From Calditrichota bacterium (GTDB lineage: Bacteria > Calditrichota > Calditrichia > RBG-13-44-9 > J042): DNA of 64,000 bases. The translations under genes were made by a program, and so were the position numbers. Location of the stretch: the NCBI GenBank assembly GCA_013150955.1, contig JAADJD010000062.1, positions 49,416-113,415 on the forward strand. Direction: 5' to 3'. Below are positions 7,030-63,360 of this stretch, piece by piece (position 1 is the stretch's first letter; every line of letters begins with the position of its first letter). The notes beneath the pieces were generated by a model. The model was not told the origin of the DNA and did no database searches. It worked only from the letters and a program-made list of their open reading frames with translations.

Positions 7030-7235
7030 TTAACCCGGATTAAGCATAAACAACCTGCTACAGGGGGATTTAATATGCATTAGCCTACGAATTACACGAA
7101 TTAAAACAAATAAAAATACAAAAACACATTGGATGGCAGCCGGATTCAAATTTGTTTCGGGATTTATTCGCGATTTTGAGGGTATGGTTTGGATGCATTT
7201 GCATAATTCTTGGTTTGATGCATCACTTGGGTTAA
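7030..7235 (-). mobile_element. MITE-like TIR repeat element copy A (reverse orientation, with extra internal terminal copy)
   Basis: It starts TTAACCCGGATTAAGCAT and ends CATCACTTGGGTTAA. The core is similar to other copies. It sits between selA and selB. Confidence 0.6.
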
Positions 7236-41243: not shown

Positions 41244-42533
41244 TTAAAATCGAAAACGACTGGTCACCGCCAGGGTGAATCCTTTGCTCCCTCCCGGAGT
41301 AATGGCACCGCGATTCATAAATCCCACATCGATGAACCAGACTTTCAGGTCAATGCCGGCTCCGAATGCAAACGTAAAGCCGGTCTTCCCCCCCACGGAG
41401 ATTCCCGCACGCAGCGGGATAATGGGAAAACCGGTGTATTCCACACCAACCGCCAATCGTGGAGTGGTGGTACCGCCCATGGAACGGTTCAATCCCTGCT
41501 CGTATTCCCCGGTAATTAACAATTGATTGTTCCAGCGGTAGGCCACGGCCAGATCCAGCACCGCAGGCAGGCGACTGCTGAAAGCGCCGATGGTGATGCT
41601 GGTATCCGATTCGACAAACAGGCTATCAGCCATGCGATCGGGGAAGGAAAGGCTATCGGCCTTGATGGAAAAAATACGTTGAGTGGTTTCTTTATTCCAT
41701 CGAATGCTACCAATGGGATTGATCAGCGCCAGACTGACCATCCATTTTTCTTCATATTGCCCAACAAATCCCAGATCGAAGGCAATGCCATTGCCACCCC
41801 GTGCATAGCGGAGACGCATCTGGGAATCCAGTGCCAGAAAGTCGCGCCCGTTGTAAAATTCGCCGCGGGAGTCTTCCACCTCGGCGTAAACCAATCCGGC
41901 CAGATATTTAAACGCCACCCCCACCGCGAAAAAGTCAAAATAATCTTCCAGAAAATCCAGCTCCAGCGGTCGGGAAATTCCCAGCGTGGCAGCCATCCCC
42001 AACCAGGCCTCGCCGTCAAAATTTCCAATCTGGTATGTCCGGTCGATGTCGACATTCCCTTTTAACGGCAGTTCAAGCATGTCCTTGGGCGCCTCTAAAA
42101 ATCCATTTCCCACAACCGCAAGGGACAGGCTCAGATTTCGGGCATAAAACGCCAGCGTATTAAATTTGGCCCAGAAGAAACCCTTCAAACCGGATTCATC
42201 AATGGCATTTAGAATCTCATTCTTATCCGCTGCGGTCAGGGAATCGCCCGTGGTAAAATAACGGTCGTATAGTCCCTTGGAAAGGCTATTGTTGAACACG
42301 CTAATATTGGCTGTCAGCAAATTGAATTCAAAATTGAATGGGCGATACAACGCCAGGGTGGCTGGATTGGTGCCCACCTGCTCCAGTCCCTTGGCATCGG
42401 CCGTGTTGCTATTGGCCATCCCGGCCGATCGCGCATCGAAGGACAATTGCGCAAACACCCCAGGCACCAGCAGCAATACACTGATAATGGCAATTTTTCC
42501 ATACCGTTTCATGGGATACCTACTGATTTTCAT
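41244..42533 (-). CDS. outer-membrane beta-barrel protein, FadL-like (PorV/LptO-like family candidate)
   Basis: The signal peptide, the NPATLA motif and the C-terminal aromatic residue (...SRFRF) support the call. Confidence 0.6.
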   Translation of the reverse strand: MKISRYPMKRYGKIAIISVLLLVPGVFAQLSFDARSAGMANSNTADAKGLEQVGTNPATLALYRPFNFEFNLLTANISVFNNSLSKGLYDRYFTTGDSLTAADKNEILNAIDESGLKGFFWAKFNTLAFYARNLSLSLAVVGNGFLEAPKDMLELPLKGNVDIDRTYQIGNFDGEAWLGMAATLGISRPLELDFLEDYFDFFAVGVAFKYLAGLVYAEVEDSRGEFYNGRDFLALDSQMRLRYARGGNGIAFDLGFVGQYEEKWMVSLALINPIGSIRWNKETTQRIFSIKADSLSFPDRMADSLFVESDTSITIGAFSSRLPAVLDLAVAYRWNNQLLITGEYEQGLNRSMGGTTTPRLAVGVEYTGFPIIPLRAGISVGGKTGFTFAFGAGIDLKVWFIDVGFMNRGAITPGGSKGFTLAVTSRFRF

Positions 42534-44616
42534 TCACGATCACTGTTAATTTCACCTGACCATTGACGGTGATGTAATCCACCGTGCGCAGGGCAACCTC
42601 CCCCGGTGTATCGGCAATTTTCAATTCGTATGCCACCCGAATTGGCGGCTGGCTCAAGATCCGCATTTCCTTACGGGTCAAATTGAACAGAACCTCGCTT
42701 TCCACCTCCTTATTGACGAATCCCGTGGCGGGATCCACCGTTGCCGCCTGCAGCTCAATTTCCTTAATAAATTCTTTATTGGGATTGAAATAGGTGGTAT
42801 CGAACAAATCGTTGCGCAAGGAATCGCGGGTGACAATCATCCGAACTTTTCCACCCAGCGGGGTATGATTCTTGACCCGAAGCGTCAGCGTTGCCTCCTG
42901 AATATCATTCTGTAAGGCATCCCGTAACTCCTGATCAATATCCTGCTCAGTTAACGTATCCACGCGGCTCTGAACGGGTTCCATACCCTGAATGGAAAAC
43001 TTCAAGGGTGTGGTTAGCTCGTAATTGGCCCAGACCTGACTTCCCAGGATCACTTCCGCTTCGCCAGAGGCGGTAATTTCGCCCTGCCCGCGAATGGAGG
43101 TTGGTAGAATGTTCACAAAATCCACCACCTCCGGGCCGGTCAATACAAATTGGGTTTGTCCTGGATTCCCCGGACGGCCGGGATTGATCGGCTGATTTAA
43201 AATCTCTATCTTTGCCGAATCGGTTACCACACCATTCTCATCTTCGTGATACCCCCACAAGGTGAGGTTTAACCGCAAATCTTCGATATACAACTCGTTG
43301 AATAGATTAAGAATCAATTTCACATCGGCCAAACGAATTCCCCCGCCTTCCAGGCGATTGTAATCGGCAATGTTCTTTTCCTCAAAAGGCCCAAAGTCAA
43401 TGGTTTCCGGGGCCAGAATACCGGTAAAGGATTTGAAGAACAGCGAGTCGGAAGAAATCTCGGTTACAATGTTGTCACTGCTCCGAACGGTTACAAACTG
43501 ATCCGATTTGCTGGTCTTGGTAAAGATGAGCACCTCAATGCTATCCAGCGGCACATTGGGGTCGGTCGGATTCTGAATTTTGATACCATCCAGAACAATC
43601 TTCTGGTTGATCGGGTCTTGATCAATAAACAAACTATCCTGGAAAGGATTGCCGTCGGGGCGGATCAGGCTTGGGATGGTGTAGACAATTTTACCGGAAA
43701 TGGCTGTCTCGTTCCGAAATGACAGGTAGAAATTGCCGCGACTGACCACCCCGCTTTTTATTTTATGCCGGCCGTTCAGGGCAAACCGAACCTTGCGCTG
43801 AAATTCCTGGGATTCCAGCTTTGCCTTCACGGAGCTGGCTTCCATATTGGCCAGATCCACAATGATCTGAATTCCGGTTTGATTCAACACTTCATCGGTA
43901 ATGGTAATAGTATCCTTCCGGGCAATGGGCACATTGTATTCCAGACGCAGGCGGTCATAAACATACATTCCCCCGGCAACGATATCATCCCGCCCTTCAC
44001 CCTGATCGCCAGAAGCCACTACCTTGTCGATCAAAATATCGCTTACCTGATTACCCAGACTATCATTCTTCAAGGTGAATTGAATTCCCGAGGAGGAATT
44101 GTTGGGCCCCAGATCGAAAGGCAGGTTATTAATGACCCGGATGATGATCGTCCCCTGCTCCAGATAAATCCACCGGTAATCCTCTGCCGTCAGAATCTTT
44201 GCCGGTGGAACCAGGGTGGTTTCCGGGATGACCACCTGGGCTCCTGTTGGCAAACTGGCCAGTTCAGGGAAGATTTCGGCCAGGGTAATCATTCCGGTGT
44301 TCATGGCCTGCAAGGAGTCCAATCGCAGAATCCCAATTTCCAGTTGATTGGTGCTTCCCCGGGGCTGAAATGCCAGTTCACTTTCCGAAAGGGTTTCTGG
44401 ATCAACCTCACCATTGACCTGAAGGGTGAGTAGCGAATCGGGATTCTGGGCCACGATGTTGGAATCGCCCAGCACCTCACTCATCTTAAACGTTTGTTCT
44501 GACAGGGGAAGAATCAGTGGAACCGCCCATCGCGGGAGTACCGGTTCCTTAAAATCGCAGGTCAGGAAGAACAATAGCGGAACCAGTACGGGAATTAACG
44601 CCTTAATTTTTTTCAT
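42520..44616 (-). CDS. large hypothetical lipoprotein (698 aa)
   Basis: The signal ends in a lipobox-like FFLTC. No recognised domain. It overlaps the downstream OMP gene by 14 nt. Confidence 0.55.
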   Translation of the reverse strand: MKKIKALIPVLVPLLFFLTCDFKEPVLPRWAVPLILPLSEQTFKMSEVLGDSNIVAQNPDSLLTLQVNGEVDPETLSESELAFQPRGSTNQLEIGILRLDSLQAMNTGMITLAEIFPELASLPTGAQVVIPETTLVPPAKILTAEDYRWIYLEQGTIIIRVINNLPFDLGPNNSSSGIQFTLKNDSLGNQVSDILIDKVVASGDQGEGRDDIVAGGMYVYDRLRLEYNVPIARKDTITITDEVLNQTGIQIIVDLANMEASSVKAKLESQEFQRKVRFALNGRHKIKSGVVSRGNFYLSFRNETAISGKIVYTIPSLIRPDGNPFQDSLFIDQDPINQKIVLDGIKIQNPTDPNVPLDSIEVLIFTKTSKSDQFVTVRSSDNIVTEISSDSLFFKSFTGILAPETIDFGPFEEKNIADYNRLEGGGIRLADVKLILNLFNELYIEDLRLNLTLWGYHEDENGVVTDSAKIEILNQPINPGRPGNPGQTQFVLTGPEVVDFVNILPTSIRGQGEITASGEAEVILGSQVWANYELTTPLKFSIQGMEPVQSRVDTLTEQDIDQELRDALQNDIQEATLTLRVKNHTPLGGKVRMIVTRDSLRNDLFDTTYFNPNKEFIKEIELQAATVDPATGFVNKEVESEVLFNLTRKEMRILSQPPIRVAYELKIADTPGEVALRTVDYITVNGQVKLTVIVNENQ

Positions 44617-44744
44617 TGGGAAAAACCTTTATTTTAAATTGCCTCACTCGTTATCGGGAAAATAAATAAATCGACACAAACGACTTAAATATGAGATAAT
44701 TTTTAATTTGCAAACTTGACTTAGGTCACTCCCGGATTCGAAAA

Positions 44745-46997
44745 TCACCGTTGCAGGACAAACCGATGAACGGAACGATTGCCCACATTATCCACCACGA
44801 AAACCTCCAGGTGTCTGGCGCCGGAAGGCAGGTGGCGGGGGTCTACCCGGATGAATTTTTCCTCCGGATCGTATTCAAACAACACCCAGCGGCCATCCGC
44901 CCGAACGGTGATCTGTTTCTCTTTGTATATGCCGGCCATCTCATCGTACACTTCAAAAAACAACGGGCGGCGGGCATTCAACAGGGAATCGTTCCGTACG
45001 GCACTTAACACCCGAAACACCGGCGGGATGGTATCCTGAATCAGCGTAAATTTTTCCAGGCTGGTGATGCGCGCTCGTAATGTATTCCCCTCCCAGCGGG
45101 TAGGTAAAAACAGCCATCCTTTTTTGCGATCCCAGTAGTATGCGCCCAGCCCTTTCACCCCGCGGAGCGAATCGGGTACCCGAAAGCCCATCTCGGCTCC
45201 CCGGCGAAAGGGCTGATCGAACGGTTGAACGTCGTACACCGGCGCCAACATCCGGTACGGCGATGCAACGGCGACCGTTTCATCGGGGACAATCTGTTGA
45301 ATCCGGCAAAACAGGGTGTCGTATACACTCTCGCTTTCGAAACGAATCTCCAGTTGCCCATTCGACGATGCAACCCGCTGCACCTTTCCCGGCACCACCG
45401 GATGCCATTGCTGCAGCTCCGCCACCAGAAAAGGAAATTCATCCACCGGCAATTGGCTAATCCGGAAAAAATCCTCCACAGATAAAACCATCAATGCCTC
45501 TTCGCGCAGGGGATAAATGGGAATCGCCCTGAAGATGTCCGATTCCAGCAACCGGGGCACCAGATGAATGGGCACTTTTATTCCCAGCTGATTGCCACGG
45601 AAAACGATTCGTGGAGTAACACTGCTGCGGGTGGTTTGATCTTCTGGATCGACCGGATCTTCCAGTTGCGGATTCAGGTACACCGGCAACCCCGGCGATT
45701 GCGCCGTGTAGTAAGGGATGACTTTTAATTCCGGAATTTCCGGATTGGTCTTCAAGGGGATGGAAAGAAAATACCAGAAATCGCTGGCAATTTTTTGAAC
45801 ATCATCCAGAACGTATTGCGCGGGATCGCTAACTTTTCCAGACGCCGCCGGTTCACGAATCTCAATCCAGGTCAAGGGTTGCGGAGAGCGAACCGACAGC
45901 AGCAGTTTTTTTTGAACCACGCCCCGCGTCTCCACCTGCACCTGCAGATTTCGGTGAAAAATAATCGTCCCGCGGATCACCGTCTCATTCTGATGAAAAT
46001 CCCGCAAACGGATCTCCACCGTATTTTCCCCATCATTCAGCAATCGCTCATCCAGAATGCCACCTTCAGGAGGAGTATCGGGATAAACCGGCAGAACATT
46101 CGCGGGATGACGGAAGAGATTTTGAAACTTGCCCCATCCCTTTCGCCATAACGAGAAATTTTTATCCAGCTCCACCAGGTGGGTATGGCTGTAGCTGAAA
46201 CGATCATAGCGCACATGAAAGGCCGGTACCTGATTGACCAACAATTCGGCTTCATAAAGGCCAAATTTGTTGTGCACCCCGTTGCCCATATCATATGCAC
46301 GAATGGCCAGGTAGGCCGGCCCGGAAAGGTAGAGCGGTTCCGATAATTCAATGGTTTTACCTGCGTGAAGGGGAATGATGAGTGTATCCGGTTCAAAATT
46401 AATGAATGTGCGTACCTTCAGGGGAATCACGGCCAGAAAACGTGCCCGTGGCGGGATGGTATCTTCCACCTCACCCGGATAAAAACGCAACGGATTCATG
46501 GGACGGTTTTGCGGATCGCGAATTTCGAAATGCAGGTGGGGCACCCCGATTCCCGTTTCGCCGGTATAGCCAATGACCTGTCCCTTTTGCACCGGAAATG
46601 CAGAGGGCTCGGGGAAATAGTCCAGCACGTACTGTTGCCGCTTCATCCGCAATCGATCCGCAAACGCCTCGATTTCCGGAATGAACCGTTCCAGGTGGGC
46701 GTAAACCGCAATGTTGCCATCCTTTAATTTCACATACAGGGCCTTTCCGTAACCATTTGCAGAGACCCGAATCCGATAAATGTAGCCATCATCGATGGCA
46801 AAGATCTTGTACCCGGTTCGATTCCAGGTTTTAATATCGATGGCAGCGTGAAAATGGCGCGGACGAAATTCGCAGAAACTGCTGGTCAGGTGTTTGCTGG
46901 CATTGGTGGGCCAGAGGTAATCCCCGGCCATAAGCCCCACCGGAACCCCCAGAAAAAAAGTAAGAAGTATCCGTTGAACGCGTGAAAATATGTTCAT
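44745..46997 (-). CDS. M23-family metallopeptidase with N-terminal anchor and about 570 aa C-terminal region of unknown function
   Basis: The HxxxD motif (HFHAAIDI) and the HxH motif (VPHLHFEI) of LytM/M23 are present. Confidence 0.7.
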   Translation of the reverse strand: MNIFSRVQRILLTFFLGVPVGLMAGDYLWPTNASKHLTSSFCEFRPRHFHAAIDIKTWNRTGYKIFAIDDGYIYRIRVSANGYGKALYVKLKDGNIAVYAHLERFIPEIEAFADRLRMKRQQYVLDYFPEPSAFPVQKGQVIGYTGETGIGVPHLHFEIRDPQNRPMNPLRFYPGEVEDTIPPRARFLAVIPLKVRTFINFEPDTLIIPLHAGKTIELSEPLYLSGPAYLAIRAYDMGNGVHNKFGLYEAELLVNQVPAFHVRYDRFSYSHTHLVELDKNFSLWRKGWGKFQNLFRHPANVLPVYPDTPPEGGILDERLLNDGENTVEIRLRDFHQNETVIRGTIIFHRNLQVQVETRGVVQKKLLLSVRSPQPLTWIEIREPAASGKVSDPAQYVLDDVQKIASDFWYFLSIPLKTNPEIPELKVIPYYTAQSPGLPVYLNPQLEDPVDPEDQTTRSSVTPRIVFRGNQLGIKVPIHLVPRLLESDIFRAIPIYPLREEALMVLSVEDFFRISQLPVDEFPFLVAELQQWHPVVPGKVQRVASSNGQLEIRFESESVYDTLFCRIQQIVPDETVAVASPYRMLAPVYDVQPFDQPFRRGAEMGFRVPDSLRGVKGLGAYYWDRKKGWLFLPTRWEGNTLRARITSLEKFTLIQDTIPPVFRVLSAVRNDSLLNARRPLFFEVYDEMAGIYKEKQITVRADGRWVLFEYDPEEKFIRVDPRHLPSGARHLEVFVVDNVGNRSVHRFVLQR

Positions 46998-55524: not shown

Positions 55525-55652
55525 AATAAACCCTCAACAAGTTTCCATCCAAGATATAATCTTTTTATTTGTGTTCATTCGTGTTATTCGTGGTCTCATG
55601 GATAAATCGCATTGTGTCGCGCTCATCGTGCTCAAAACAGAATCCAGATTAA
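55525..55652 (+). mobile_element. MITE-like element partial copy K (right half only)
   Basis: AATAAACCCTCAACAAGTTTCCATCCAAGATATAATCTTTTTATTTGTGTTCATTCGTGTTATTCGTGGTCTCATGGATAAATCGC ... CAGATTAA. Confidence 0.45.
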
Positions 55653-57019
55653 AATTTGTAAGAAAGACCGATCATGACCCGCGTTACCCGGATATCTTCC
55701 AGCGTTCCACCCGGCGTCAAGGCGTCTTCGGACTCCTGCTTCCAGGCACCATACAGATAGGTGATGTTTAACGATACGTACTGATCCAGTTTAAAGCCCA
55801 ATCCAGAGGTCAAATACACCCGATCCATCGTTTTGGGGGCACCCTGGTAAGGCGCGGGAATGTAAATGTAACCACCGCGCACACGAAGCATTTCCCCCAG
55901 TGCCCATTCACCGCCGATCTGATAGCGGATGGTCTCCCGATACTCCCGCCGGATAACGCGATTTTCATCCAGTAAAGCGGCATAATCGGGATCGTCCATG
56001 GAATTCTCCGGGATGACAAACCGGGTTTGCGACCAATCCCGATACCGGAAACTGGCGGCCAGGGTGAACGGCTTCACCCTCAACGAAATACCGCCATCGA
56101 AATAAAACGGCGTCTGGACTTTGTACTGGAATTCTCCTCGATCCAGTTCTTGCTGGTCACTAAAACCATCGTCGTAGACCAGTTCATCGGTTGCCAGATA
56201 GGATTCGGTTACCGTAAAGGTCACCGGCAATCCAATGGTAGCCCCCAGACGGGCAAATCCGCCCAGTTTAAACATACCCCCAATTTTCATCCCGATGGCC
56301 GAATACTGGGACTGGATGGACTCTTCGTATTTGTACGAATAAAAATCGGCTACCATTTTAGGTTCTGAGTATTCATTGTAAATATCTTCCTGGTAAAAGA
56401 ACAATTGATAATTTTCCCGTCCCCGCCAGATGTCCAGACTGACCCCGAGGTCAAAATTGGGGGACAACGCAATGGCCGCCGCAACGCTCCAGTTCCGTAA
56501 TCCACCTTCGTTGTTCACTTCCTCGGTCTGCTGGACATTCTTATCAAACGGGTAATAAACTTCCTGCCCATCTTCGATAACCGGGATTTCCAGACCATTG
56601 CTCTGGGTATTGAATCCCTCAAAGAGCAGGGAACGATCAAAATCTTTCACCCGGTTGTAACCAAAGCCAAGCACAAAGCTGCCTCGCGTGGTAGGAAGAG
56701 GCAGGGCAAATCCAATCGCCCGCACCTGGGTAAAGCCCTGACTTTGATCGGTGGTTACACCATAAAAGGTTGCCGAATTGTTGAAATTTATGTGAGACAA
56801 TTCTCCATAAAATTCCGATTGCCGCAGGGAAGCCAGTCCCGCTGGATTCCAGTAGATGGATAAATAATTATCCGTGGTTGCGGTGAAAGCACCGCCCATG
56901 GACAGGGCACGGGCACCAAAGCCCATCTCGTCCTGCACAATCCGAACCGCATCGAACGCACTTTGACCCCACAGGTTGACACCGAGCATCAGTAACAGAG
57001 AAACAACACCCCGCCACAT
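55649..57019 (-). CDS. outer-membrane beta-barrel protein, FadL-like (paralogue of the 41244-42533 gene)
   Basis: The signal peptide, the NPAGLA motif and the C-terminal ...LSYKF support the call. Confidence 0.65.
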   Translation of the reverse strand: MWRGVVSLLLMLGVNLWGQSAFDAVRIVQDEMGFGARALSMGGAFTATTDNYLSIYWNPAGLASLRQSEFYGELSHINFNNSATFYGVTTDQSQGFTQVRAIGFALPLPTTRGSFVLGFGYNRVKDFDRSLLFEGFNTQSNGLEIPVIEDGQEVYYPFDKNVQQTEEVNNEGGLRNWSVAAAIALSPNFDLGVSLDIWRGRENYQLFFYQEDIYNEYSEPKMVADFYSYKYEESIQSQYSAIGMKIGGMFKLGGFARLGATIGLPVTFTVTESYLATDELVYDDGFSDQQELDRGEFQYKVQTPFYFDGGISLRVKPFTLAASFRYRDWSQTRFVIPENSMDDPDYAALLDENRVIRREYRETIRYQIGGEWALGEMLRVRGGYIYIPAPYQGAPKTMDRVYLTSGLGFKLDQYVSLNITYLYGAWKQESEDALTPGGTLEDIRVTRVMIGLSYKF

Positions 57020-57047: not shown

Positions 57048-58328
57048 TTAACGCCGTTTAATCGTTGCCCGGGAAGACGTTCCCCGGCTGGAACTGGAAG
57101 AGCGGCTGCTTCCGCTCCAGCTGCTTCGCGAAGAGGAACTGGATGAAGACCGATAACTGGGCCGGCTGGACGATCGAGACGGCGACCGATAGCTGGGCCG
57201 ACTGGAAGAACTGGATCGGCTGGATCGATAGGATGGCCGGGACGAGCTGCTCTTCCGGGCAGGCGCTACCGACTCCTGACGTGACTTTCGATAGCTCCGG
57301 TACTTTTTAGTTTCGCTACTGCGAGTCCGTCGGATTTCCCGGGTGTGCGAAGATCCATTTTCCCGCGCGCGAACCACTTTCTTTTCCGTCCGCCGCGGGC
57401 TTTTAGTCCGAACCACCTTGCGCTCACTTCGCTTTGAAGAGCGGACGTCTTTCTTGACTCGCCTCTTTTCTTCGGTGCTCAATCGGGCGCGTTTGCGCTC
57501 CCGATCGTAAATCTTCCGGATAATGCGCTGCTTGTCCGCATTGCGATTGCCATTAGTTAACTCCTTCGGAACCCGGGTGCGGATAATTTCTGGCGTTCGG
57601 CGCCGATTCCGTTCGCGATCAGGAACCTCCCGCTCCACCACGGTACGCTGTTTCCGCTCCGCCACCTGGCCGCGCTTACCGTTGCTGACCACCGGACTGG
57701 AAGCGACCGGTCGGACACCCCCAACCAGCGTCCGATCCGACGGTTCTCGATCACGAATCAGTGGTTTACGGCGATCCCACTCACGCCGCTTGGTCGGCGC
57801 GCGATCCACCACATATCCATAGTTGATCCATCCGCCCCAGTAAAATCCATCCCAATAATACGGCGAATATCCATAAAACCCCCAATAGCCAGTGTAATAA
57901 TAATCCCACCAGTAGTACGGATAAGACCAATACGGATAATACACCACTACCGGAGGTGGGTAATACCAGAACGGTCGACCAAAATGCAATCCAATGTGAA
58001 CACTAACAAAGGGGCCATAGAAGGGATCATAAAAGAATGGATCGTAATAAAACGGATCATAGAAAAACGGATCGTACCAGCCGCCAACAATGTAATCACG
58101 ATTGTAAAAGTAATAATTTTTAACAATGGTACGACCATAGCCGTAGTCATCGTAAGCCTCTTCCTCGTAAACGGTGTCTACCTCAGCAGTGGTATACTCT
58201 TCATCCGAATACACCACTGTGGTGGAGGTGACACCCCTCGTGGTACCAAACGTGGTATAACATCCCTGAAAAAGTAACAGCGAAACAACCGCTGTTGTTA
58301 TCATCAAAATGGATCGCCAGGATTTCAT
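57048..58328 (-). CDS. unusual lipoprotein with an aromatic-rich (Y/W/F/P) block plus an Arg/Lys/Ser-rich repetitive tail
   Basis: MKSWRSILMITTAVVSLLLFQGC is a signal with lipobox Cys. YDPFF occurs four times and a WYYPPPVVVYYPYWSYPYYWWDYYYTGYWGFYGY block follows. The C-terminal 230 aa carry about 40% R/K/S with three SSSRPSYRS units. GAGGTG lies upstream of ATG 58326-58328. Confidence 0.6.
   Translation of the reverse strand: MKSWRSILMITTAVVSLLLFQGCYTTFGTTRGVTSTTVVYSDEEYTTAEVDTVYEEEAYDDYGYGRTIVKNYYFYNRDYIVGGWYDPFFYDPFYYDPFFYDPFYGPFVSVHIGLHFGRPFWYYPPPVVVYYPYWSYPYYWWDYYYTGYWGFYGYSPYYWDGFYWGGWINYGYVVDRAPTKRREWDRRKPLIRDREPSDRTLVGGVRPVASSPVVSNGKRGQVAERKQRTVVEREVPDRERNRRRTPEIIRTRVPKELTNGNRNADKQRIIRKIYDRERKRARLSTEEKRRVKKDVRSSKRSERKVVRTKSPRRTEKKVVRARENGSSHTREIRRTRSSETKKYRSYRKSRQESVAPARKSSSSRPSYRSSRSSSSSRPSYRSPSRSSSRPSYRSSSSSSSRSSWSGSSRSSSSSRGTSSRATIKRR
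57150..57250 (-). repeat. about 27-30 bp imperfect tandem DNA repeats (x3) encoding the SSSRPSYRS units
   Basis: CGATAACTGGGCCGGCTGGACGATCGAGA, CGATAGCTGGGCCGACTGGAAGAACTGGA and CGATAGGATGGCCGGGACGAGCTGCTCTT. Confidence 0.5.
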
Positions 58329-58363
58329 GTCGATCACCTCACTTTAGTTCTACCCTTTTCTAA

Positions 58364-58502: not shown

Positions 58503-59951
58503 CTAATCCAGTTTATACTTTGCCAGATCGATCCGGTACCGCTGTAGTTTTTTATGCAGTCCCATGCGACTCAAACCCAATTCCCGTGCCGTCTGGCTGA
58601 TGTTTCCCCGATTTTTTTGCAATGCCCGCTCGATAAAATACCTCTCCATCTGTTCCACCCGTTCTTTTAACTGCAATGCCCCCTGACCATTAAAAGGTGC
58701 TCCGTCTGTCGTGTGGATCTCCGGAAATTCAATCAAATCAGGTGTAATGGCCATCCCATCATCCGCCAGCACAATCGCGCGTTCGATGATATTCTCCAGC
58801 TGACGCACATTGCCCGGGTAATCGTAATCCCGCAACCGTTGGAGCGCTTCCGGGTGGATGCCGGTGATTCGCTTGCCCATCTTCAAGGAATATTTCCGGA
58901 TAAAATGATACACCAGTTCGGGGATATCCTCCCGGCGCTCCCTTAAAGGCGGCAAATGGATGGGAAACACATTCAAACGATAGAACAAATCTTCCCGAAA
59001 TTTGCCTTCCTGCACTGCCCGAGCCAGATCCCGATTGGTTGCGGAAATGACCCGGACATTCACATGAATGGCTTTTTCGGATCCCACCGGGTGAATCTCC
59101 CCTTCCTGCAATACCCGAAGCAGGCGTTTCTGAAATTCCGGGGAGGTTTCTCCAATCTCATCCAGAAAGATGGTTCCGCCATCGGCCAGTTCAAACAATC
59201 CTTTTTTATCGCGAGTGGCCCCGGTAAAGGCCCCTTTTACGTGACCAAATAATTCGCTTTCCAGAAGGGTTTCCGGTAACGAAGCACAATTCTGACTGAC
59301 AAACATTTTATGTTTACGAGGGCCGTTGTAATGAATTGCCCGGGCGACCAATTCTTTGCCCGTGCCGGTTTCCCCGGTGATTAAAACCGTGACGTCCGTG
59401 GGAATCACCTTTTTTAGCAAATGAAACACCTTTTGCATGGCCGGACTTTTGCCAATGATATGGTCGAAGGTGTATTCGGCCTCCATCTCGCGTTGCAGCA
59501 GCAAGTTTTCCGCGGCCAGCCGTTCGTTGGCCTGACGCAATTCTTCCAGTAAGCGTTCATTGTCTTTTTTCAGCTGATAATGTTCAATGGCCCGACGGAC
59601 GATCAGTCGCAACTCATCCGGTTCCCAGGGCTTTTGAATGTAGTAGAAAATTTGCCCCTCATTAATGGCCCGGATAGTGGCATCGATATCGGAATACCCG
59701 GTAATCAGGATGCGCACCGCATCCGGCTGAATGTCTCTGGCCTGCCGCAGGAATTCCACTCCGGTCATTTCGGGCATCCGTTGATCCACCAGTAAAACGG
59801 CAACCGGTTGCTTGCGGATCACTTCCAGAGCCGATAATGGCGAAGAGGACAGGATCACCTCATAGTCCCGTCGTAAAATGCGCTGAATGGCGTGCAAGAT
59901 CCCCTGTTCGTCATCCACGGCCAGAACCGTGTACCGTCGATTCGTTGACAT
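58503..59951 (-). CDS. sigma54-dependent response regulator (NtrC family: REC, AAA+ and Fis-type HTH)
   Basis: The REC domain is followed by GETGTGKE (Walker A), the GAFTGA sigma54-contact loop, ESELFGH and a C-terminal HTH. Confidence 0.9.
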   Translation of the reverse strand: MSTNRRYTVLAVDDEQGILHAIQRILRRDYEVILSSSPLSALEVIRKQPVAVLLVDQRMPEMTGVEFLRQARDIQPDAVRILITGYSDIDATIRAINEGQIFYYIQKPWEPDELRLIVRRAIEHYQLKKDNERLLEELRQANERLAAENLLLQREMEAEYTFDHIIGKSPAMQKVFHLLKKVIPTDVTVLITGETGTGKELVARAIHYNGPRKHKMFVSQNCASLPETLLESELFGHVKGAFTGATRDKKGLFELADGGTIFLDEIGETSPEFQKRLLRVLQEGEIHPVGSEKAIHVNVRVISATNRDLARAVQEGKFREDLFYRLNVFPIHLPPLRERREDIPELVYHFIRKYSLKMGKRITGIHPEALQRLRDYDYPGNVRQLENIIERAIVLADDGMAITPDLIEFPEIHTTDGAPFNGQGALQLKERVEQMERYFIERALQKNRGNISQTARELGLSRMGLHKKLQRYRIDLAKYKLD

Positions 59952-62900
59952 TATTTCCTCTCCTCATCCCTGTTTTTCCCGGTTTCCCTGGAAAGTGGCA
60001 AATAGATCCGAAAACACGTCCCCTTTCCTTCCTGACTTTCAACTTCGATGCGCCCCCCATGATCCTGAATGATCCGGTAACTGATACTCAATCCCAGTCC
60101 CGTTCCCTGGCCCACAGGTTTGGTGGTAAAAAACGGATCAAAGATCCGCGAAAGCACATCGGCTGGAATGCCTTTTCCATCGTCGCGAATCTCCACGCAC
60201 ACTCGATCCCCTTCACTGCGTGTGGTGATCCAGATGTTTCCTTTCCCCTCAATGGCCTGAATGGCATTCAACAAAAGGTTCATGAATACCTGATTGATTT
60301 GCCCGGGCTGACAGACAATTCGGGGTAGCTCGCCATACTTTTTGTGAACCCGAATCCGATCCCGAATTTCGTGGCGCAGAAGGGTCAGGGTCGATTCCAG
60401 GCCTTCGTGTAAATCCACCGACTTGAACGCCGCTTCGTCCAGTCGGGAAAAATTGCGTAAGTTTTGCACCACTTCTTTCACCCGTCGGCTTCCATCCAGG
60501 CTTTCCTGAATCAAACCATTCAAATCGTTTAAAATAAAGTCCAGATCGTATTGATCCTGTAATTGTTGTACCGTTTCTTTTAACTTTTCGGGCAGATCCC
60601 TGGCATCCCGTTGTTTTAAAATGACCTCCAGCAATCGCGAGAGCGCCTCGACATATTCCTGCAGGGTCTTCAAATTGGCATACACAAAGCTAATGGGATT
60701 ATTTAATTCGTGGGCAACCCCCGCGACCAGTTGCCCCAGACTGGACATTTTTTCGCTCTGGATGAGCTGGGCCTGCGCCTCCTTCAATTCCTGATACAAT
60801 CGCCGCAATTCCCGGTTCTTCGCTTCCAGCTCCCGCACATATTTCTCCCGCACCTCGGCCTCAGTCACCTTCTGAATCAACCGCTTGGTCTCTTCGATAT
60901 AGCGATTGTTTTCCACGGCAATGGCGGCCTGATTGGCAATAATCTGCAAAATGCTTCGATCCTCCGCATTCAATTCCCGACGTCTCTCCCCGGTTACCAG
61001 AACAATCACTGCATACAGGTTATCCTCCCGGCCAATCGGGATCAGGTAATCGCAGGGAATTCGGGTGAACTCCGGCAACTGTCTTTGAATCTCATCACAG
61101 GCCAGAATGCGCCCCCCGCTCAGAAGCGCCTGTTTAGACGGGTCGAGCGAGATTTCCGGCATTTGTGGAAGCGTTTTTCCGGAACGGGCCACCTCACGAA
61201 ACACATCGCCCTGCTTTTCCATGACCAGACAGAGCGATATTTCCAGCGCCCGGTGAATGGTGGAAGCCAGCTGGGAGAACAGCTCCTGATTGGTTTTAAT
61301 TAAAATCAAATCCCGCGAAAATGCCTGCAGCAGACGGCGATAGCCAAACCGCTTTTCCTCCACCCGGCGAATTTTCTCCAGCACCACGGTGGCCGCCCCG
61401 ATCACCACCAGCAAAACCCCCAGCTGGGTGGTTAAAATTTTTCGTACCGGCTCTTCCCGATACATCCAGAACACCCCGTAAAGCAGCCCAATCATTAACA
61501 GAATGAAGGCATTAAAACTCACATTGCGCCAGTGGTAGCGCGAGCCAGCCAGGGAAAGAAAGGCCACAATGATGCCAAAAATCAATAACGACAATCCCAG
61601 ATTGATCCAGAAATCCAGTTGTTGAACCAGGCGACCCAGGGAATGCATCATTCGGTAGGACACCTTCCGCAGGCCGGTTTTTTCTTCCACGATGTACACA
61701 TTTCCCGGTTTCAGCCCGGAACGCCAGCGTTCGGTGCCGGAGGGGAAGACGATTCGCGCAGTGTATTGTCCCCCGGCGTCCACCCCAAAATGGGCCACCA
61801 GTTCGCTCAGGGATAAATAACCCTGTCCCCCACTGATTTCCCGAAAACCAACCAGCACCAGGCTGTCCCGCTCATCTCGTTTATACAACCACACCCGGGT
61901 GCCCACAGCATCGCGATTGCTCCCGACCCCTTCAAGGATCAGGCGGACATAATTTTTGTTATTTAACGGATTGAGATACAGAACGGAATGGGTGTCCTTG
62001 TTGGCCACAAATACGTCCAGATCACCATCGTCATCCAGATCCGCTACCGCCACCCCGGTGCTGTAATTCTGGTTTCGAACGGTACCCGGGAGCCGTTCCT
62101 CAAACACCCGTTCCAGCAGCTGCCCATTTCGATTCAAATAAAATTGATTGGGGCCAATGTTGGAGAAAAAAACATCCTGCCACCCGTCGTTGTTTAGATC
62201 AGCAATGATACCGCCATACGCCGGGTAGGGATTGGCCACCTGAAACGGCCGGGGAGCTTCCTCAAATTGCCAGTTCGTGTCCCCGGCCGCTGTATGATTC
62301 AGATACAGGCGACTGTGGCCATCGCGATCCGCAACCAGAAAATCGAGATCGCCATCATTATCCACATCGCCAAAAACCACGCTGTTGCTATTCACCGCGT
62401 GTTGGAGGTGAAACAACGGCAAAGAAACCGGACGGAAGGACATTCCCCCGCGATTTTCATAAAGCGTATCTGGAGCAAACCAATTGCAAACGTAGAGATC
62501 CAGATCACCATCCCCATCCACATCGGCAAAGGCCGCACCCTGACTTACCGCACGCGAAGCCACCCCATATGCCGACGCCCGATCGCGAAAATACCGCCCA
62601 TCGTAATTGATGAACAGATGATTGGCATGGTGCTCGTCCGTAACGAACAAATCCAGGTCACCATCGCCATCCACGTCTCCCCAGATTCCCATATTGCCAT
62701 CCAGGGGACGCCGCAACCCCATCTCTTCGGTCACATCCTGAAAACGAAAATGGGGCAACTGGCGAAACAATCGGGTACTGACCCCCCACCCCAGAATCAG
62801 CACATCCACCCGGCCGTCATCGTCAAAATCGACGGCCGATCCGCCAAGCTCCAGATTAACCTTTTTGCGCGGCATAAGGTTACCCCCCAGGCCGGTGGCG

Positions 62901-63211
62901 ATGGTTCGATCTTCGAAGGTTTGCCCTCCCTGGTTCACAAATAACCGGTTGAGATTCCGAAATCGCACCACATAAAGATCCGGATAACCATCATGATTCA
63001 AATCGCGAAACACCACCCCGTAACTGTCCCCAAACTCCGGTAATAGAGAATGACTCACCGGTTGGGCAAACATCCGGGCGACCCAGAGGGAATCTCCAGT
63101 TGCACCTGCAGAACTCATGAATAAAAAAATCAGGCCAATAGCCCCCAGCCAGCGCATGCTCCCGCACGGTGAAAAGCCTGGGGAACGCTCACAGTAGGTT
63201 ACTGTTTCCAT
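59951..63211 (-). CDS. sensor histidine kinase with extracytoplasmic seven FG-GAP repeats plus UnbV_ASPIC domain, TM, coiled coil, HisKA and HATPase_c
   Basis: Seven D-x-D/N-x-D-G-x-x-D FG-GAP blades are present (for example FGDVDNDGDLDFLV). The ASPIC/UnbV block is VGTRVWLYKRDERDSLVLVGFREISGGQGY. The H-box is HELNNP and the G-boxes are DDGKGIP and GTGLGL. The start is ATG 63209-63211, TTG 63214, or ATG 63157 if the signal peptide is cleaved. Confidence 0.8.
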   Translation of the reverse strand: METVTYCERSPGFSPCGSMRWLGAIGLIFLFMSSAGATGDSLWVARMFAQPVSHSLLPEFGDSYGVVFRDLNHDGYPDLYVVRFRNLNRLFVNQGGQTFEDRTIATGLGGNLMPRKKVNLELGGSAVDFDDDGRVDVLILGWGVSTRLFRQLPHFRFQDVTEEMGLRRPLDGNMGIWGDVDGDGDLDLFVTDEHHANHLFINYDGRYFRDRASAYGVASRAVSQGAAFADVDGDGDLDLYVCNWFAPDTLYENRGGMSFRPVSLPLFHLQHAVNSNSVVFGDVDNDGDLDFLVADRDGHSRLYLNHTAAGDTNWQFEEAPRPFQVANPYPAYGGIIADLNNDGWQDVFFSNIGPNQFYLNRNGQLLERVFEERLPGTVRNQNYSTGVAVADLDDDGDLDVFVANKDTHSVLYLNPLNNKNYVRLILEGVGSNRDAVGTRVWLYKRDERDSLVLVGFREISGGQGYLSLSELVAHFGVDAGGQYTARIVFPSGTERWRSGLKPGNVYIVEEKTGLRKVSYRMMHSLGRLVQQLDFWINLGLSLLIFGIIVAFLSLAGSRYHWRNVSFNAFILLMIGLLYGVFWMYREEPVRKILTTQLGVLLVVIGAATVVLEKIRRVEEKRFGYRRLLQAFSRDLILIKTNQELFSQLASTIHRALEISLCLVMEKQGDVFREVARSGKTLPQMPEISLDPSKQALLSGGRILACDEIQRQLPEFTRIPCDYLIPIGREDNLYAVIVLVTGERRRELNAEDRSILQIIANQAAIAVENNRYIEETKRLIQKVTEAEVREKYVRELEAKNRELRRLYQELKEAQAQLIQSEKMSSLGQLVAGVAHELNNPISFVYANLKTLQEYVEALSRLLEVILKQRDARDLPEKLKETVQQLQDQYDLDFILNDLNGLIQESLDGSRRVKEVVQNLRNFSRLDEAAFKSVDLHEGLESTLTLLRHEIRDRIRVHKKYGELPRIVCQPGQINQVFMNLLLNAIQAIEGKGNIWITTRSEGDRVCVEIRDDGKGIPADVLSRIFDPFFTTKPVGQGTGLGLSISYRIIQDHGGRIEVESQEGKGTCFRIYLPLSRETGKNRDEERK

Positions 63212-63360
63212 CAATGTGGACTTTTCCCCGTTGCATTAAGTGTTTAAGCATGTAACGACTCGAATTACCCTGAATACACAACGCTTAAGTAAAGATGTTC
63301 ACGCAGATAAAACGAACCGCGATTTGCAAAAATTCCTCTGAAACCATTCGATTTGAAGCC

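Follow-up and report, generated by a model that had tools for sequence, protein, structure and literature searches.

The β-barrel assembly machinery (BAM) of Bacteroidota was described in 2025 as including FadL-like barrels that anchor surface lipoproteins. In this system, BamG, a 14-stranded barrel of the FadL family, anchors the surface lipoprotein BamH, whose highly conserved lipidated N-terminus is wedged against the BamG barrel, and the paralogues BamG2 and BamH2 are encoded as an operon (PMC12578637, PMC12611786). PorV and PorQ of the type IX secretion system (T9SS) are likewise barrels that bind or anchor another secreted protein. Here we describe a separate and equally widely conserved pair that is uncharacterized, consisting of a 698-aa outer membrane lipoprotein and a DUF5723 β-barrel outer membrane protein (OMP). 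Both are encoded on the minus strand of a 64,000-nt stretch of DNA (hereafter the window), the source of which is, according to the best database match, a Calditrichota metagenome-assembled genome (MAG). A preliminary description of the window had grouped the two genes with an M23 peptidase gene as an envelope operon, and the three codirectional minus-strand open reading frames (ORFs) are indeed present: the M23 metallopeptidase gene (44745-46997, 750 aa) and the lipoprotein gene (42520-44616, 698 aa), as given by the ORF list, followed by the DUF5723 barrel gene (41244-42533; 429 aa, or 422 aa from an ATG at 42512). The three-gene operon was, however, not supported, because the upstream gene was found to differ between loci beyond relatives of at least 80% identity. 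The conserved unit is two genes, lipoprotein and barrel, since this pairing is kept in 13 of 13 loci while the upstream gene changes. Reasoning by analogy, we consider it somewhat better than an even prospect that the two genes form a bicistronic cassette for a barrel-anchored lipoprotein complex.

A synteny comparison carried most of this result. At all 13 independent loci with enough sequence, the lipoprotein gene was found to be directly followed, on the same strand, by a DUF5723 barrel gene; these loci span family members down to 16 to 19% identity plus remote DUF4621-type forms, from Calditrichota to Bacteroidota. Conservation of the proposed envelope operon thus held for the lipoprotein-barrel pair but not for the M23 gene, which was adjacent only at 80% identity or more. 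The intergenic distance within the pair ranged from -14 to +143 nt (the window, L001, L003-5, L006, L007, L008, L009/10, L011, and L018). In L001, where the lipoprotein is 37% identical to that of the window and a C25 peptidase with a T9SS C-terminal domain is encoded upstream, the barrel gene starts 4 nt downstream; in L007, named Calditrichota, the lipoprotein is 19% identical, metK lies upstream, and the barrel gene follows after 80 nt. The distance was 143 nt for the family member of L008, which is preceded by unannotated ORFs with metK-ahcY beyond, and 13 and 27 nt for the family members of L009/10 and L011, respectively, the L011 pair being flanked on both sides by oppositely oriented genes. 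In L018, a KSB1 MAG with ahcY upstream, the lipoprotein stop overlaps the barrel start, while the contig of the L006 family member breaks off after 68 codons of what is clearly the N-terminus of a DUF5723 protein. A reciprocal search from the barrel found L015, a relative of a Marinimicrobia-named protein; the gene upstream, which overlaps by 11 nt, encodes a 702-aa protein that is 16% identical to the window lipoprotein and was recognized as a family member by hhalign (100%, E = 1e-56). Partner barrels of all related loci carry PF18990, the DUF5723 model.

The same order was detected in genomic DNA around DUF4621 genes, which was reached by a genome scan with a fragment of 4h3w, a solved DUF4621 structure considered below. 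In Parabacteroides, a DUF4621 lipoprotein gene (352 aa, LAAC lipobox) is followed 36 nt on by a DUF5723 barrel gene (468 aa, E = 3e-116), and in a Bacteroides sp. MAG the order is dxr, rseP, DUF4621 (361 aa), and DUF5723 (466 aa). A third size class is represented by a 587-aa lipoprotein (hhalign 93.7%, E = 1.9e-7), the gene of which precedes a fusion of a DUF5723 barrel with thrombospondin type-3 (TSP3) repeats and an OmpA peptidoglycan-binding domain (L017, 4943-7396, 817 aa); this domain content indicates a putative peptidoglycan-tethered variant of the module. As judged from the sequences, the module is distributed over Bacteroidota, Calditrichota, KSB1, and lineages resembling Marinimicrobia. 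The upstream neighbor of the pair varies and includes a C25 peptidase gene, metK/ahcY, an ABC transporter gene, and rseP. Some of these neighbors recur: ptsI or pgi and then metK (plus ahcY in L008 and L018) were found upstream of the pair in the three divergent lineages L007, L008, and L018. In the Bacteroides MAG (L016), the pair comes after dxr-rseP, a position that in E. coli is occupied by bamA.

Within the window, the lipoprotein and barrel genes are tightly coupled whichever barrel start is used. The 14-nt overlap reported earlier holds for the ATG at 42533 but not for the ATG at 42512, which leaves a 7-nt gap and yields the 422-aa product; the latter start is the version called in relatives L003 and P0179, and its product begins with a canonical signal peptide. 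The M23 and lipoprotein genes are, by comparison, separated by an AT-rich spacer of 128 nt (44617-44744, minus strand). An aligned window of 44605-44760, which includes this spacer, displayed 84% DNA identity to a relative with an 80%-identical lipoprotein, and in the same relative the spacer core looked, by eye, more conserved than the adjacent 3′ end of the M23 gene. As the spacer is conserved to 84% at the DNA level, it is suggested to be a candidate separate promoter for the lipoprotein-barrel pair. When the window was scanned for sigma-70 promoters and terminators, the counts were not above shuffled expectation, and Rfam and tRNA scans of the window returned no matches.

The lipoprotein was examined for its family and conserved residues. 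The protein begins MKKIKALIPVLVPLLFFLTC and was found, as first described, to be a lipoprotein without a recognizable domain, with no match in Pfam or NCBIfam. Its signal peptide and lipobox (aa 1-20, ...LFFLTC; 44557-44616, minus strand) end in Cys20, which is invariant in 110 of 110 aligned family members; the residue preceding this Cys is an atypical T in the window protein compared with G, A, or S in most members. While a word-indexed homologue search recovered only 4 to 7 relatives, an exhaustive profile search reached 993 representative clusters (50% identity level) at E ≤ 1e-3, with 163 at E ≤ 1e-30. Nearly all members are 665 to 725 aa in length, mostly about 690 aa, and the source names among them (few members) are Calditrichota, KSB1, Marinimicrobia, and Bacteroides. 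Immediately after the lipobox is a lipidated N-terminal tail (aa 20-32, CDFKEPVLPRWAV; 44521-44559, minus strand), which we propose as a barrel-docking element. Across the family the tail reads C-[ST]-[ILF]-x-E-P-x-[LA]-P-x-[WF]-[DE], with P at +5 and P at +8 each present in 103 of the 110 members and an aromatic residue (W or F) at +10 in 101, and it ranks second for conservation among the 8-column windows of the lipoprotein. Besides the lipobox Cys and D680, the invariant or near-invariant residues of the family are G, P, and N, of a structural kind, and no catalytic constellation was evident among the conserved residues of the 110-member alignment. The preponderance of conserved G, P, and N argues for a predicted scaffold or binding protein and not an enzyme.

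A structural model was next compared with solved folds. An AlphaFold (AF2) model based on the 110-sequence alignment was all-beta with a mean predicted local distance difference test (pLDDT) score of 93.2 and a predicted template modeling (pTM) score of 0.74; an alignment of 4 sequences gave a pLDDT of 37 and was replaced. The modeled architecture consists of an N-terminal domain and four homologous repeats that are predicted to be jelly-roll-like β-sandwiches. Tail residues 20-29 were modeled as coil at a pLDDT of about 71, compared with values above 90 for nearly all other residues. Each repeat opens with a strand of the pattern hydrophobic-x-hydrophobic-x-N-x-hydrophobic-P. On the minus strand, repeat R1 (aa ~148-246; 43879-44175) opens with IRVINNLPF and was delimited by AF2 strands and an hhalign match to R2 (97%, E = 6e-11); R2 (aa ~284-390; 43447-43767) opens with YLSFRNETA and matches R4 (97%, E = 4e-11); R3 (aa ~426-540; 42997-43341) opens with ILNLFNELY and is more weakly related by hhalign to R1 (79%), R2 (52%), and R4 (58%); and R4 (aa ~566-690; 42547-42921), which opens with TLRVKNHTP (TLRVKNHTPLGG), was defined by hhalign of alignment blocks as well as by the Foldseek match to 4h3w.

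This last entry, BDI_1231 of Parabacteroides distasonis and a member of the Pfam family DUF4621 (PF15414), was the one specific structural relative (Foldseek probability 1.00, TM 0.45 on the target). The 110-sequence lipoprotein profile also detected 4h3w in the PDB at E = 6.9e-4 over profile positions 399-584, with the NILPT and NHxP motifs aligned to IVPQ and NEMPF, and hhalign of the family profile with the Parabacteroides DUF4621 protein gave E = 1.7e-4 over 225 columns of the C-terminal half, such that R3 and R4 correspond to the DUF4621 core. Homology between the C-terminal half of the lipoprotein and DUF4621 is convincing because a remote likeness in sequence is joined by a similar fold and by the same genomic partner. 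The Pfam DUF4621 model did not match the 698-aa protein, which is a remote homologue outside the family as now defined. DUF4621 proteins likewise have two β-sandwich repeats with N-x-hydrophobic-P motifs, as in the C-terminal half of the 698-aa protein, and are also lipoproteins whose gene is directly followed by that of a DUF5723 barrel; they differ in length (about 350 aa versus about 690 aa) and in the absence of the N-terminal domain, R1, R2, and the E-P-x-L-P-x-W tail. The 698-aa lipoprotein is in this sense a double-length relative of DUF4621. The pair therefore connects three formerly separate items: DUF5723; DUF4621, including 4h3w (BDI_1231), which has no assigned function; and a family of about 690 aa that lies outside Pfam. 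In the literature, DUF5723 and DUF4621 appear only in proteome or inventory mentions.

The partner OMP is a member of DUF5723 (PF18990; E = 2e-23, 84.1 bits compared with a cut-off of 26.8). The protein has a signal peptide, a FadL/PorV-like N-terminal segment with NPATLA, and a C-terminal ...FRF. Its earlier designation as FadL-like was borne out in part: the N-terminal similarity weakly places the DUF5723 barrel in what may be called the FadL/PorV-like world, but its family is DUF5723, and the FadL/Toluene_X model (PF03349) was not matched at E ≤ 0.01. When the barrel profile was compared with the PDB, the best solved structure was TbuX at E = 0.033 over 26 residues only. Among the family models of Pfam and NCBIfam, a sub-threshold match to a FadL-type pilus transporter was also obtained. 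The BamG model (NF053685) was matched by neither this OMP nor the orthologous barrels.

These likenesses bear on the idea of an uptake module, in which DUF5723 would admit a hydrophobic or amphipathic substrate as a lateral-diffusion channel of the FadL type and the lipoprotein would be a surface capture lid or binding protein for this substrate, comparable with SusD on SusC. With FadL, TodX, and TbuX the DUF5723 OMP has in common a signal peptide, an N-terminal segment of the form G-x-A...NPA-x-LA, a similar size, and a C-terminal aromatic residue, and the domains of the lipoprotein resemble carbohydrate-binding modules (CBMs); yet the Toluene_X model does not recognize the protein, and supporting gene context is lacking, with no substrate-pathway genes near. 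We regard such an uptake role as unlikely, although it is the least unlikely of the alternatives.

A link to T9SS, at which the preliminary description had hinted by regarding the lipoprotein as cargo-like, fared less well, and we consider it distinctly improbable that DUF5723 is a PorV/PorQ-like outer membrane shuttle or anchor with the lipoprotein as its T9SS-associated partner. Such a role would be in keeping with the table of outer membrane vesicle (OMV) proteins of P. gingivalis that, in accession order, lists a DUF5723 protein beside a protein with a T9SS C-terminal domain (PMC12937337). DUF5723 proteins do match the PorV/PorQ-family models weakly (E ~ 5e-6), in line with the N-terminal similarity, but scores for PorV, PorQ, and PorU all fall far under the curated cut-offs; the window OMP reached 26.2 bits with PorV_fam against a cut-off of 90, excluding it from the PorV/PorQ families (NF033709 and NF033710), and the orthologous barrels score similarly low. 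Moreover, the partner of DUF5723 is a lipoprotein in which no T9SS C-terminal domain (Por_Secre_tail/CTD) or other T9SS family was matched in Pfam or NCBIfam. Consistent linkage of the pair to T9SS genes was also not observed: the gene immediately upstream of the pair in L001 encodes a C25 peptidase that carries a T9SS C-terminal domain and scores 100 bits with the PorU model (cut-off 420), and a large protein with a weak Por_Secre_tail match is encoded two genes downstream in L018, but cargo genes were near the pair in just 2 of the 13 loci. T9SS-cargo genes are numerous in genomes of this kind. To our knowledge, T9SS is confined to the Fibrobacterota-Chlorobiota-Bacteroidota (FCB) group, with none in Brachyspira. 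DUF5723 is nevertheless present in this spirochaete (10.1101/2025.01.03.631275).

Instead, we favor a stable outer membrane complex of the lipoprotein and the DUF5723 barrel, an explanation that as a whole we hold with moderate confidence. It is proposed because the FadL/PorV-like partner barrel, the conserved tail that is modeled as coil, and the translational coupling match the logic of BamG-BamH. In such a complex, the DUF5723 barrel would serve as the membrane anchor and docking platform of the lipoprotein, and the lipidated tail, C-[ST]-hydrophobic-x-E-P-x-L-P-x-W, would bind a groove or lateral opening of the barrel, as does the N-terminus of BamH on BamG. The rigid β-sandwich array would then be displayed, probably at the cell surface, as a nonenzymatic scaffold or binding module, and the role of the pair would probably be housekeeping in the envelope. 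The housekeeping role is suggested by the neighboring genes (mutL-miaA, metK-ahcY, and dxr-rseP), by the OmpA fusion, and by the fact that no catabolic or regulatory genes travel with the pair.

The orientation of the lipoprotein was considered in light of the acidic residues that follow the lipidated Cys. One of the BAM studies of Bacteroidota took as its criterion for surface lipoproteins the presence of two acidic residues among the six that follow the Cys (PMC12578637). Such residues are found in the lipoprotein of the window (CDFKEP) and in some homologues from Bacteroidota, namely the 587-aa form (CKADID) and Parabacteroides DUF4621 (CVDSKYD), which suggests that the lipoprotein may be surface exposed. 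Weighing against this exposure, the pattern is present in just 39 of 110 family members and is missing from the Bacteroides sp. DUF4621 form; the other 71 members have at most one acidic residue among the six positions past the Cys. These 71 members, together with the fact that no surface-export rule is known for Calditrichota, are compatible with a lipoprotein in the inner leaflet of the outer membrane that touches the periplasmic side of the barrel, as do LptE on LptD or the BAM lipoproteins of Proteobacteria. We judge this periplasmic orientation to be quite improbable, given the acidic residues of the three proteins above and the surface exposure of the closest paradigms, BamH and SusD. 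Multidomain jelly-roll arrays, moreover, are typical of surface proteins of the FCB group, a point that was also counted against a periplasmic location.

The M23 gene upstream was analyzed for its possible part in the module. Its 750-aa product, a secreted metallopeptidase, has an N-terminal signal or anchor segment followed by an M23 domain (Peptidase_M23, PF01551; 48.8 bits compared with a cut-off of 28.7), in which both zinc-ligand motifs are present, HFHAAID (HxxxD) and HLHFEI (HxH). The Pfam match is confined to the catalytic domain (aa ~25-175; 46473-46925, minus strand), and matches in the PDB were only to M23 domains. As had been noted, a long region without motifs makes up the remainder: Pfam covers about 175 aa, and the other 575 aa (44745-46472, minus strand), the fold of which is not assigned, had no match in Pfam or the PDB and no relation to the lipoprotein family when the two were compared. 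A faint precomputed match of an orthologue to PF27332 (TP_0781) in this C-terminal region was not reproduced, and the literature on TP0781 was uninformative. No T9SS C-terminal domain was detected in the protein with Pfam or NCBIfam, and it is 68% identical over its full length to its L003 counterpart.

Joint action of the M23 peptidase, lipoprotein, and barrel, for example in peptidoglycan remodeling coupled to the outer membrane, is the least probable of the explanations considered. The three genes are codirectional with short gaps, and relatives with 80% identity retain the full neighborhood of CoA ligase, M23, lipoprotein, DUF5723, mutL, and miaA, as does an 89% relative over the part of its contig that was read; the trio is thus kept in relatives of at least 80% identity. 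In addition, the Bacteroides MAG has a different M23 gene (286 aa) three genes upstream of its DUF4621-DUF5723 pair, and the one fusion of a DUF5723 barrel to an OmpA domain would likewise connect the barrel to peptidoglycan. However, the gene upstream of the pair is variable, with M23 not adjacent in nine loci (L001, L007, L008, L009, L011, L014, L015, L017, and L018), the AT-rich spacer that separates M23 from the pair is itself conserved, and the C-terminal region of the M23 protein shows no relation to the lipoprotein family. The M23 gene is a real gene but a lineage-specific neighbor outside the conserved module, and it probably has its own transcript boundary.

The window encodes a second OMP (55649-57019, minus strand), a member of the Toluene_X/FadL family, that was previously regarded as part of an analogous lipoprotein-OMP pair. 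The NPAxLA motif is indeed common to both OMPs (NPATLA in DUF5723 and NPAGLA in the second OMP), but the likeness goes no further than this N-terminal NPA-x-LA segment: the proteins are of different families (DUF5723 versus Toluene_X), and their BLASTP E-value of 0.37 is not significant. The gene directly upstream of the second OMP (57048-58337, minus strand) encodes a low-complexity 429-aa protein with the lipobox LLLFQGC, followed by an extremely Tyr/Phe/Pro/Trp-rich segment (YDPFFYDPFYYDPFFYDPFY...) and an Arg/Lys/Ser-rich tail of about 250 aa. This protein is unrelated to the 698-aa family, so the proposed analogy between the two pairs was abandoned, and it had no match in Pfam, NCBIfam, or the PDB; an envelope protein of such composition is very unusual. 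In NCBIfam, the second OMP scored highest with BamG (58.6 bits against a cut-off of 250) and PorV_fam (58.1 bits against 90). It may correspond, in Calditrichota, to the BamG found across the FCB group, or it may be a PorV-like protein; a gene resembling that of BamH is not present beside it. The low-complexity lipoprotein and FadL-like OMP genes are directly preceded by those of (i) a 1,087-aa sensor histidine kinase (59951-63214, minus strand), which combines a GAF domain with an extracytoplasmic domain of the FG-GAP/ASPIC (VCBS-like) type; and (ii) a sigma-54-dependent response regulator (58503-59951, minus strand), the two genes overlapping by one base.

A dispersed repeat of about 60 to 70 nt, with the approximate consensus TTAACCCAGATTATGCATTAGCCTACGAATKACACGAATTAACACAAATAAAAATAATAAA, was also observed in the window. 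Copies are located at 7095, 11298, 22896, 23018, 28092, 28170, 33461, 36457, 36506, 38696, 40826, 40927, and 55571, all between long ORFs and often paired at 50 to 120 nt apart, with two copies in the 477 nt that separate the DUF5723 gene from mutL. The 13-nt core of the repeat occurs 13 times with at most one mismatch compared with 0.08 occurrences expected in the window. The repeat resembles a repetitive extragenic palindromic (REP) or miniature inverted-repeat transposable element (MITE)-like element and has no Rfam match.

Because gut Bacteroides and Parabacteroides, for which genetic systems are established, carry orthologous pairs, the proposed complex is directly testable there. One cluster of DUF5723 barrels from gut Bacteroidales comprises 3,758 member sequences, and a function, if found, would provide a role for genes that are apparently widespread in this group.

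Among the described systems, BamG-BamH is the one to which the lipoprotein-DUF5723 pair is best compared. Both combine a FadL/PorV-like barrel with a large lipoprotein (the figure of 14 strands refers to BamG), and in both the lipidated N-terminus is among the most conserved parts of the lipoprotein, which is scaffold-like rather than enzymatic. Both systems are found in the FCB superphylum, and the barrel and lipoprotein genes of BamG2-BamH2 likewise lie together, in an operon. The two differ in that no homology in sequence or fold was detectable between them; consistent with this, neither the profile search of PDB sequences nor the top fold matches listed recovered a BamH chain, and the lipoprotein was not identified as BamH. 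In its arrangement the pair is similar to BamG-BamH, but its two proteins belong to other families. More tentatively, and as a possibility that we think rather less likely than the complex itself, the pair may represent an unrecognized core outer membrane complex of several FCB phyla, a third system of FadL-like barrel and surface lipoprotein beside BamG-BamH and PorV, with a housekeeping function in outer membrane biogenesis or integrity, for which 4h3w would be the minimal form and the Calditrichota-type lipoprotein of about 690 aa the duplicated form.

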